Source of the DNA: a virus
Lineage: Duplodnaviria > Heunggongvirae > Uroviricota > Caudoviricetes
Virus record (IMG/VR): IMGVR_UViG_2585427748_000004
DNA: 6,942 nucleotides
Reading direction: 5' to 3' (one strand)
Both the position numbers and the translations under genes were made by a program. This document shows, piece after piece, positions 2,212-2,906 of the stretch; the first letter of the stretch is position 1, and every line of letters starts with the position of its first letter. A model generated the notes under the pieces. It made no database searches. It saw only the letters and a list, made by a program, of their open reading frames with translations, and had not been told where the DNA came from.

Positions 2212-2249
2212 ACAAAATCAATATAAACAGCCCCTCCGGAGAGGGGCTG
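2212..2249 (-). terminator. Candidate intrinsic terminator at the 3' end of repeat unit A
   Basis: Perfect 9-bp stem CAGCCCCTC/GAGGGGCTG with 4-nt loop (2228-2249), followed on the minus strand by TTTATATTGATTTTGT. Confidence 0.4.
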
Positions 2250-2437
2250 GAGAGTGGCGCTATGTGCCATTGCATGGTGCCGGGTGCCTCCCGGTGAATT
2301 CAGTACCAGCACCTGAATCCGCGATTATCCCATATACCTACTCGCTGATTACCCCTCCGCACAGGGGGATTCACCATGCGAAATTTTTTAACAAACTTCC
2401 CGCCGGCCAGACAATAATCGCCAGCCTGAATTATGAG
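2228..2437. repeat. Structured repeat unit A (~210 bp)
   Basis: Shares with unit B the hairpin GCCCCTCCGGAGAGGGGC, GCATGGTGCC(N)GG..CCTCCCGGT.AATTCAG, GGGGGATTCACCATGCGA and TTTTAACAAA...CAGACAAT.ATC blocks. Internal stems are kept by different sequences in the two copies. Confidence 0.6.
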
Positions 2438-2472
2438 CAACGTGGCATTTTACGGGAAAACTGTTTTCTGCA

Positions 2473-2497
2473 GTAAAAAGGCCCGCCGGAGCGAGCC
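2473..2497 (-). terminator. Candidate intrinsic terminator at the 3' end of the diverged middle unit
   Basis: Stem GGCCCGC/GCGAGCC (one G-U pair) with the same CGGA/TCCG loop as the other two hairpins, followed on the minus strand by TTTTTAC. Confidence 0.4.
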
Positions 2498-2691
2498 TGG
2501 AAGGATAGCGGTCATGTGATGCCGGTTTCCCGGTAACTCAGCATCGGTATCTGAGTCAACGTTTTCTCTACTGGGTCATTTCCGATACGTTCCGCCTTCC
2601 GGCAGACTTTCATCACGTCAGAAAATATAGCACCCTGAGTAACAGGACAGTACTCAGAATTCAGGAAACTGTGACACATCCTGCACAGAAA
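2480..2691. repeat. Diverged third copy of the structured repeat (middle unit)
   Basis: Starts with the same loop-type hairpin and retains a TGCCGG..TTCCCGGTAACTCAG block resembling TGCCGGGTGCCTCCCGGTGAATTCAG of unit A; the rest has diverged. Aligned by eye only. Confidence 0.35.
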
Positions 2692-2711
2692 AGCCCCTCC
2701 GGAGAGGGGCT
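2684..2711 (-). terminator. Candidate intrinsic terminator at the 3' end of repeat unit B
   Basis: Perfect 8-bp stem AGCCCCTC/GAGGGGCT with loop CGGA (2692-2711), followed on the minus strand by TTTTCTGTG. Confidence 0.4.
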
Positions 2712-2906
2712 GAAGTATAGCCTAATTTCTGTCTGTCGCATGGTGCCAGGGGCCTCCCGGTAAATTCAGCCTGTCTACTGAATTTGCATGTTCTCTGGAT
2801 CATACACTTTGCCAGATGCCCCGCCGCTGAGGGGGATTCACCATGCGATGTAATTTTTAACAAATTCTCCGGCAGCCAGACAATCATCAAGCTGTGGAAT
2901 TGTGAG
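2692..2906. repeat. Structured repeat unit B (~215 bp)
   Basis: Direct repeat of unit A. Stem pairs GCATGGTG/CACCATGC and AATTCAG/CTGAAT are kept while loops and some stem bases differ. Confidence 0.6.

Follow-up and report, generated by a model that had tools for sequence, protein, structure and literature searches.

A probable tandem array of three STnc100-family small RNA genes on the late strand of a lambdoid prophage

Introduction

The small RNAs (sRNAs) of the STnc100 family have been described under several names, among them EcOnc27 in EHEC O157 Sakai and sRNA103 in EDL933, and the PasD RNAs of EPEC are related to them; such relatives have been detected by Northern blot, Hfq-CRAC and RIL-seq. 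EcOnc27 was found in EHEC Sakai by Hfq-CRAC next to stx2B, where it is convergent with AsxR. All STnc100 copies of EDL933 (11/11) are transcribed, one of them having been verified on a Northern blot, and RpoD binding has been reported at the promoters of the Salmonella copies. In EPEC, PasD1 and PasD2 have been detected by RIL-seq as abundant RNAs with a length of 172-173 nt. The chimeras that they form involve their 3' 50 nt, the seed UGUGAG is placed after the scaffold and before the terminator, and their RNA-seq levels show no significant change in an hfq deletion (log2FC 0.55 and -0.18). According to a 2026 preprint (Zhu, Shabalina and Storz), PasD and STnc100 share an ancestor, and the Pas copies are distant from one another, not tandem. 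A 2025 machine-learning study identified variation in the STnc100 copy downstream of stx2a as the strongest genomic predictor of HUS. No function, mechanism or validated target has been published for STnc100.

Here we describe a stretch of 6,942 nucleotides of lambdoid prophage DNA (hereafter the window), the minus strand of which most probably carries three tandem sRNA genes of the STnc100 family (RF02076), with PasD as a structural relative. The three units are called B, M and A in their order on that strand.

Results

Three direct repeats and their boundaries

The three direct, diverged repeat units of the original prediction are present and occupy positions ~2219-2925 of the window; the unit boundaries that it gave did not stand and are corrected in Table 1. 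A repeat search of the window showed that blocks D1, D2, D4 and D5 recur between A and B at a spacing of 466-469 nt, and that a hairpin block is present in three copies (2226-2252, 2476-2502 and 2689-2715). In global alignments, whole-unit identity was 67% for A and B (z 17.7 against shuffles), 55% for A and M (z 8.3) and 54% for B and M (z 6.3), which bears out the earlier description of two units sharing long blocks with a weaker copy between them. TRF, run on the window, did not call the units as a tandem array because the copies are too diverged. The three predicted hairpins with a CGGA loop on the plus strand were also found. Read on the minus strand, all three have a U-rich tail behind them; these are the terminator hairpins of Table 1.

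Table 1. Coordinates of the array and of neighbouring features in the window.
Feature	Position	Strand	Remarks
Unit B, extent	~2925-2683	-	
Unit M, extent	~2682-2470	-	
Unit A, extent	~2469-2219	-	
Unit B, Rfam match	2683-2876	-	RF02076 STnc100, 138 bits, E 2.9e-31
Unit M, Rfam match	2472-2647	-	RF02076, full-length, 30 bits, E 0.0012, below threshold
Unit A, Rfam match	2219-2407	-	RF02076 STnc100, 132.5 bits, E 7.4e-30
Unit B, RNA body	2683..2846	-	P1 to terminator tail; MFE -64.1 kcal/mol, z -3.0
Unit M, RNA body	2470..2618	-	probable diverged STnc100/PasD-class member; 24/30 consensus pairs
Unit A, RNA body	2219..2379	-	STnc100-family sRNA; MFE z -3.2
Unit B, intrinsic terminator hairpin	2692..2711	-	tail UUUCUGUG
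Unit M, intrinsic terminator hairpin	2479..2498	-	tail UUUUUACU
Unit A, intrinsic terminator hairpin	2228..2249	-	tail UUUAUAUU
Unit B, single-stranded linker	2712..2737	-	GACAGACAGAAAUUAGGCUAUACUUC; putative seed, by homology with PasD seed position
Unit M, linker	2499..2513	-	GACCGCUAUCCUUCC; putative seed
Unit A, linker	2250..2271	-	AAUGGCACAUAGCGCCACUCUCC; putative seed; small hairpin possible
Unit B, promoter-like element	2854..2883	-	TTGTCT, 18 nt, TAAAAA; ends 7 nt before P1
Unit M, extended -10-like element	2624..2632	-	TGcTATATT; ends 5 nt before P1; read from sequence
Unit A, promoter-like element	2385..2414	-	TTGTCT, 18 nt, TAAAAA
ORF over unit A	2264-2476	+	70 aa
ORF over unit B	2654-2923	-	89 aa
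Sialate O-acetylesterase	1..1597	-	DUF1737 + SASA; cut by window edge
IraM homologue	1858-2193	+	NF007393, 162 bits vs cut-off 121
DUF3927 small ORF	2965..3081	-	PF13064, E 5.8e-11
tRNA-Arg(UCU) (argO) remnant	3083-3126	-	
Strong terminator downstream of Q	4878-4893	-	tail UUUUUUAU
pR'-like promoter and terminator	4878-4975	-	TTGATT-16-TAAATT, read by eye
DUF968 gene	6181-6780	-	truncated to 199 aa
IS3-family transposase OrfA	6742-6942	+	PF01527

Units A and B belong to the STnc100 family, and M is a diverged relative

To compare the repeats with known sRNA models, we scanned the whole window against Rfam 15. Units A and B both matched RF02076 STnc100, and did so on the minus strand, as expected of the structured late-strand sRNAs that had been predicted; both reached the gathering score of the family (47 bits), and M did not. 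No other Rfam family matched in the array region, and AsxR and AgvB gave no Rfam match in the window at E up to 1. We also built a covariance model (R1), as the original prediction had suggested doing from the copies, using ten family members: A, B, M, PasD1, PasD2, three Stx-phage copies, one E. coli phage copy and one Klebsiella phage copy. R1 scored A at 152.7 bits and B at 140.3 bits; M reached 86 bits (E 2e-18), being itself among the ten input sequences. A search with the model returned 128 copies in 88 sources, 32 of them distinct, in which the structure is kept; all of the matches (128/128) lie on the strand of the esterase gene.

RNAalifold, applied to the ten-member alignment, gave an architecture identical to that of the Rfam model: within the closing helix P1, hairpin P2 is followed by a region P3 that varies and by the hairpins P4 and P5, and after P1 come the linker and the terminator. 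Each RNA begins with a 5' domain of ~100-110 nt, whose three or four hairpins are enclosed by P1, the helix in which the predicted first nucleotides are paired. A single-stranded linker (15-26 nt) comes next, and the RNA ends in a GC-rich terminator hairpin with a U-rich tail. Both internal stems noticed earlier have a place in this fold: GCAUGGUG...CACCAUGC is P1, and P4 is formed by GGAUUCAG/CUGAAUUC in A and by AAAUUCAG/CUGAAUUU in B, the two differing by compensatory changes from G-C to A-U. All 30 consensus pairs form in A and in B, and six are unpaired in M. When each unit was folded singly, the minimum free energy (MFE) fold of A reproduced the consensus, and M gave a z of -2.7 in the sense orientation against -0.4 in antisense.

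Fitting the covariation alignment to the model biased it towards the structure, but the margin was large: among the 32 distinct homologues, 96.0% of the predicted-pair cells form standard pairs and 12 of the 30 pairs have changed on both sides, values reached by none of 500 shuffles. Sliding the 3' partners as a control lowered pairing to 40-54%. These compensatory changes argue for selection on RNA structure, as had been proposed. The homologues also indicate the strand, for G.U cells outnumber A.C cells by 77 to 1 and an antisense reading would pair just 87.9%; the RNA is therefore the minus strand of the window. Unit M has kept helices P1, P2, P4 and P5 and the terminator by means of different sequences. 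Its P1 is ACGUGAUG/CAUCACAU where the other units have GCAUGGUG/CACCAUGC, two pairs being changed on both sides, and its further helices are CUGCC/GGCGG (P2), GACUCAG/CUGAGUU (P4) and CCGG/CCGG (P5). A second M variant, ~91% identical, has compensatory changes.

The units are non-coding

The repeats are direct, and the ORFs that cover A and B were confirmed to lie on opposite strands: the open frame of A is in the antisense strand only and that of B in the sense strand only. Neither ORF matched Pfam or NCBIfam. Among the 32 variants checked no frame is open in all, M and a third copy of the type found in locus L150 have stops in all six frames, and the indels between variants are not multiples of three. 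With no conserved frame and no family match, we rejected a protein-coding gene, in agreement with the earlier non-coding claim. In public annotation, RefSeq calls one unit, as a partial pseudogene (NZ_CP147059 among the records), and GenBank phage records (ON470607, ON470612 and others) label the units hypothetical proteins. The ERIC core and REP consensus patterns were absent at up to three mismatches, and a dispersed repeat of either kind, which would have spoken against the predicted sRNAs, was likewise rejected. Every test that we ran agrees with the reading of the units as structured sRNAs given in the original prediction, which is thus supported.

Promoter-like elements and the 5' ends

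The weak hexamers upstream of A and B occupy the same position as TTGACT-18-TAAAAA of PasD, which lies upstream of the PasD 5' end estimated by RNA-seq; the Klebsiella copy has TTGACC-18-TAATCC there. The extended -10-like element of M is kept in both M variants though their flanks differ. A simple sigma-70 scan found no minus-strand promoter with at least 9/12 matches and did not call the A and B hexamers. Its only matches inside the units were of TTAACA-16-GACAAT on the plus strand, which we read as the mirror image of a conserved minus-strand block because the strand evidence favours the minus strand.

The first base of P1 is only one candidate for the 5' end. On Northern blots the EcOnc27 bands measure 235 and 247 nt, which exceeds the stretch between P1 and the terminator by ~60-70 nt, so that the true 5' ends may lie upstream or longer transcripts may be processed. 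A conserved box, (C)TCACAATTCAG, is found at 2896-2906 (minus strand); almost every STnc100-type unit has it ~55-60 nt upstream of P1, and on the same strand it recurs in weaker form near 2427-2440 and 2665-2675. It contains the PasD target motif CUCACA and coincides with the expected 5' end of the 235/247-nt EcOnc27 species. The candidate 5' ends of the three units are thus near 2846, 2618 and 2379, or ~60 nt upstream of these positions at the TCACAATTC box.

The family copy of the Sakai prophage Sp5 (L209:1952-2126) is on the stx2 strand, and the published Northern probe matches its linker. We shifted the published EcOnc27 coordinates by 142 nt, an offset that presumes a particular stx2B position in an older genome version. 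On this presumption, the EcOnc27 CRAC cluster takes in P5 and the 3' strand of P1 together with the whole linker-terminator part, and AsxR is located at the expected place.

Variable 3' modules on a near-constant scaffold

The linker of unit B lies between P1 and the terminator, at a position homologous to that of the PasD seed UGUGAG. Across the family, linker and terminator together form 3' modules of at least eight classes, carried on near-constant scaffolds. The same module is found on different scaffolds, and some STnc100 scaffolds bear a terminator of the PasD type. Hybrid genes of this kind, in which an STnc100-type scaffold is followed by a long, distinct linker and the PasD-type terminator (GGCUGCGCAUGGCGCGGCC then a U-tract), are present in loci L203, L205, L197 and L198 (~2220-2415; 750-945 in L205). 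Judged from their sequences, these hybrids are direct evidence of module exchange between the STnc100 and PasD subfamilies.

Nine terminator-like sites were observed in the region against 2.0 expected, and the U-tracts of A and B are short and interrupted. Pairing of the linkers with the translation-initiation regions of seven genes in the window was not significant, the best z being -2.76 in 21 tests. A scan of genome contigs with the 16-nt pattern GCATGGTGAATCCYCC returned 120 chance matches in unrelated phyla, none of them usable.

Genomic context and recombination

The array belongs to the late genes of a lambdoid prophage and shares their strand; Q, the tRNAs and DUF3927 flank it on one side and the sialate esterase on the other. 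Read along the minus strand, the order is DUF968 (cut by the IS3-family OrfA), RusA, Q (PF03589), a small ORF, a DNA methylase, tRNA-Met/Ile(CAU), tRNA-Arg(UCG), a truncated tRNA-Arg(UCU), DUF3927, units B, M and A, iraM on the opposite strand, and the SASA esterase. Both neighbours recur in relatives. The DUF3927 ORF is the conserved upstream neighbour of PasD1 and PasD2 in E2348/69, where prophage PP2 has the order DUF3927, PasD2, esterase; the esterase is the conserved downstream neighbour, with family copies upstream on the same strand in 80 viral loci. A Stx2a phage with the same backbone has the methylase, the tRNAs, stx2AB, a single STnc100 copy and the esterase.

Related loci have the sequence of the window as far as position 3085, which falls within the third tRNA, and depart from it beyond that point; this shared point of divergence marks 3085 as a recombination junction, and since several related loci have the breakpoint in common, recombination took place inside a tRNA gene. 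As far as the anticodon loop, the argO remnant found here does not differ from the gene of the Stx2a phage; past the loop it is replaced by the DUF3927 ORF. Several further features of the locus may be mentioned. The prophage carries a homologue of the anti-adaptor IraM, which is convergent with unit A and occupies the site of AsxR/AgvB-type anti-sRNAs in Sakai prophages; in the related locus L131, an unbroken match to the window (~98% identity) extends from unit A across the IraM homologue into the esterase. Directly downstream of Q, a pR'-like promoter is followed by a strong terminator, a layout that gives the short 6S/StxS-type leader RNA in lambda and in Stx phages. The transposase OrfA starts at 6742 and truncates the DUF968 product, which has ~329 aa in strain JKHS016.

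Distribution and copy number

Some part of the 731-bp region was matched in 2,862 of 5,426 complete E. coli genomes, at up to 12 places per genome, and in 655 of these 5,426 at least 80% of the region was covered by a match. Unit M alone was present in 673 of the 5,426 genomes, in the form of two variants (339 genomes at ≥ 99% identity and 334 at ~91%); in the RefSeq records sampled, no annotated feature lay under the full-length M matches. Copy number followed a one-or-three pattern: among 82 sources with copies, 59 had one, 23 had three and none had two, and M was seen solely as the middle gene of three. In the phage collection, the whole array was carried by non-Stx phages only. The scaffold, by comparison, is conserved from Escherichia to Klebsiella phages.

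Discussion

We read the array as, most probably, three tandem sRNA genes of the STnc100 family. In the lysogen, each unit would be transcribed from its own weak sigma-70-type promoter, as the relatives suggest, and homology with PasD would place the 5' end at the first base of P1. By analogy with the relatives the 5' domain may stabilise the RNA, and a 5' end buried in P1 would be expected to resist 5'-end-dependent decay. Linker and terminator would make up the module that contacts Hfq and pairs with targets, as in EcOnc27. Since the scaffold is one and the linker is another in each of A, M and B, the array would supply three trans-acting regulators with different targets. The three terminators would in addition keep any polymerase that is not Q-modified from running on into the esterase and lysis genes.

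The units could instead be processed pieces or 3'-UTR-like stabilisers of longer transcripts, which would start at pR', at the tRNA promoters or in an upstream unit and act mainly in cis on the stability of late or moron mRNAs. Such transcripts would fit with the missing call of a strong sigma-70 promoter, with the length of the EcOnc27 species on Northern blots, with the weak U-tracts of A and B, which could allow read-through from B into M and A, and with the position of the element ~75-100 nt after stx2B in Stx2 phages. We nevertheless consider this unlikely: the PasD 5' end estimated by RNA-seq is the first base of P1, behind a TTGACT -35 hexamer, promoter-like hexamers are conserved at that place in E. 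coli and Klebsiella copies, the Salmonella copies reportedly bind RpoD at their promoters, and the relatives are abundant in uninduced cultures.

An array that served chiefly as a stack of three intrinsic terminators, insulating the esterase and lysis genes in the lysogen and read through by Q-modified polymerase only, with the RNAs as by-products, would agree with the three successive terminator hairpins that the late strand has between the tRNAs and the lysis module, and with the excess of terminator-like sites. A terminator, however, has no need of a co-varying 5' domain of ~100-110 nt, or of a scaffold that is conserved from Escherichia to Klebsiella phages, and the relatives crosslink to Hfq and form chimeras with mRNAs; we regard this explanation as quite improbable. 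Least credible of all, and in our judgement hardly worth entertaining, is that the units encode small proteins as database annotation has it. ORFs of 70 and 89 aa do exist, phage records speak of hypothetical proteins, and ribosome-coverage values exceed 1 for some of the EDL933 STnc100 copies, but these ORFs lie on opposite strands of direct repeats, lack a Pfam or NCBIfam match and are not conserved as a frame in any of the ways described above, from the stops in M and the L150-type copy to the indels and the partial-pseudogene call in RefSeq.

We also propose, tentatively and as a reading that falls somewhat short of an even chance, that the array is a multi-seed sRNA cassette: a nuclease-resistant four-way-junction scaffold with exchangeable 3' modules that are shuffled by phage recombination, unit M representing an unrecognised third subfamily. 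The cassette reading, if true, would mean that ~12% of complete E. coli genomes have the M subfamily and that annotation based on Rfam misses it; M scores too low for the present Rfam threshold, and no feature lies over M in the RefSeq records sampled. The array also makes plain that three copies of the STnc100 element can occupy the place that stx has in Stx phages, and that variation in the part presumed to recognise targets goes together with constancy of a large structured domain. It does not reveal a new kind of system. Units A and B belong to a family already described, which limits the novelty; the M subtype, the occurrence of copies in ones or threes and the modularity of the 3' ends may be new. 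These points should be of use to annotators of prophage sRNAs and to designers of experiments on the STnc100 family.

Compared with the described systems, the array is closest to STnc100/EcOnc27, to which it is linked by its match to the covariance model, its architecture, its orientation on the late strand and its place between Q and the tRNAs on one side and the esterase on the other. Unit A has exactly the linker and the terminator stem of the copy that follows stx2a in phage Stx2_130296 (L124), the tail after the terminator stem being the sole difference in the 3' module; the linkers of B and M, in contrast, differ from that of Sakai EcOnc27. Where Stx2 phages have stx2AB followed by one STnc100 copy, the array locus has three tandem copies and no stx, and it has iraM where Sakai has a convergent sRNA of the AsxR/AgvB type. 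Those anti-sRNAs (Tree, 2014) share the moron site downstream of pR' in lambdoid prophages and bind Hfq, but they differ in being 51-60 nt long, in their convergent orientation on the opposite strand and in acting as sRNA sponges.

PasD1 and PasD2 of EPEC E2348/69 (Pearl Mizrahi, 2021) have in common with the array the 5' helix GCAUGGUG, P2 and a P4-type hairpin, together with the promoter position and the gene order DUF3927, sRNA, esterase. Like M, they fall below the Rfam threshold (41.4 and 37.7 bits). Unlike the array units, they are without hairpin P5 and have a 3' module of their own, with the seed UGUGAG and the terminator GGCUGCGCAUGGCGCGGCC then U8; this module is found in none of A, M and B, so that the scaffold alone is common to both (alignments A1 and A2). 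Adjacent paralogous sRNA genes with partly common sequence are also familiar from OmrA/B, PrrF1/2 and Qrr, in which the common part is usually the seed or the terminator. Set against these groups, which are among those cited in the 2026 preprint, the array reverses the arrangement: its common part is the large 5' structured domain, and it is the presumed seed region that differs.
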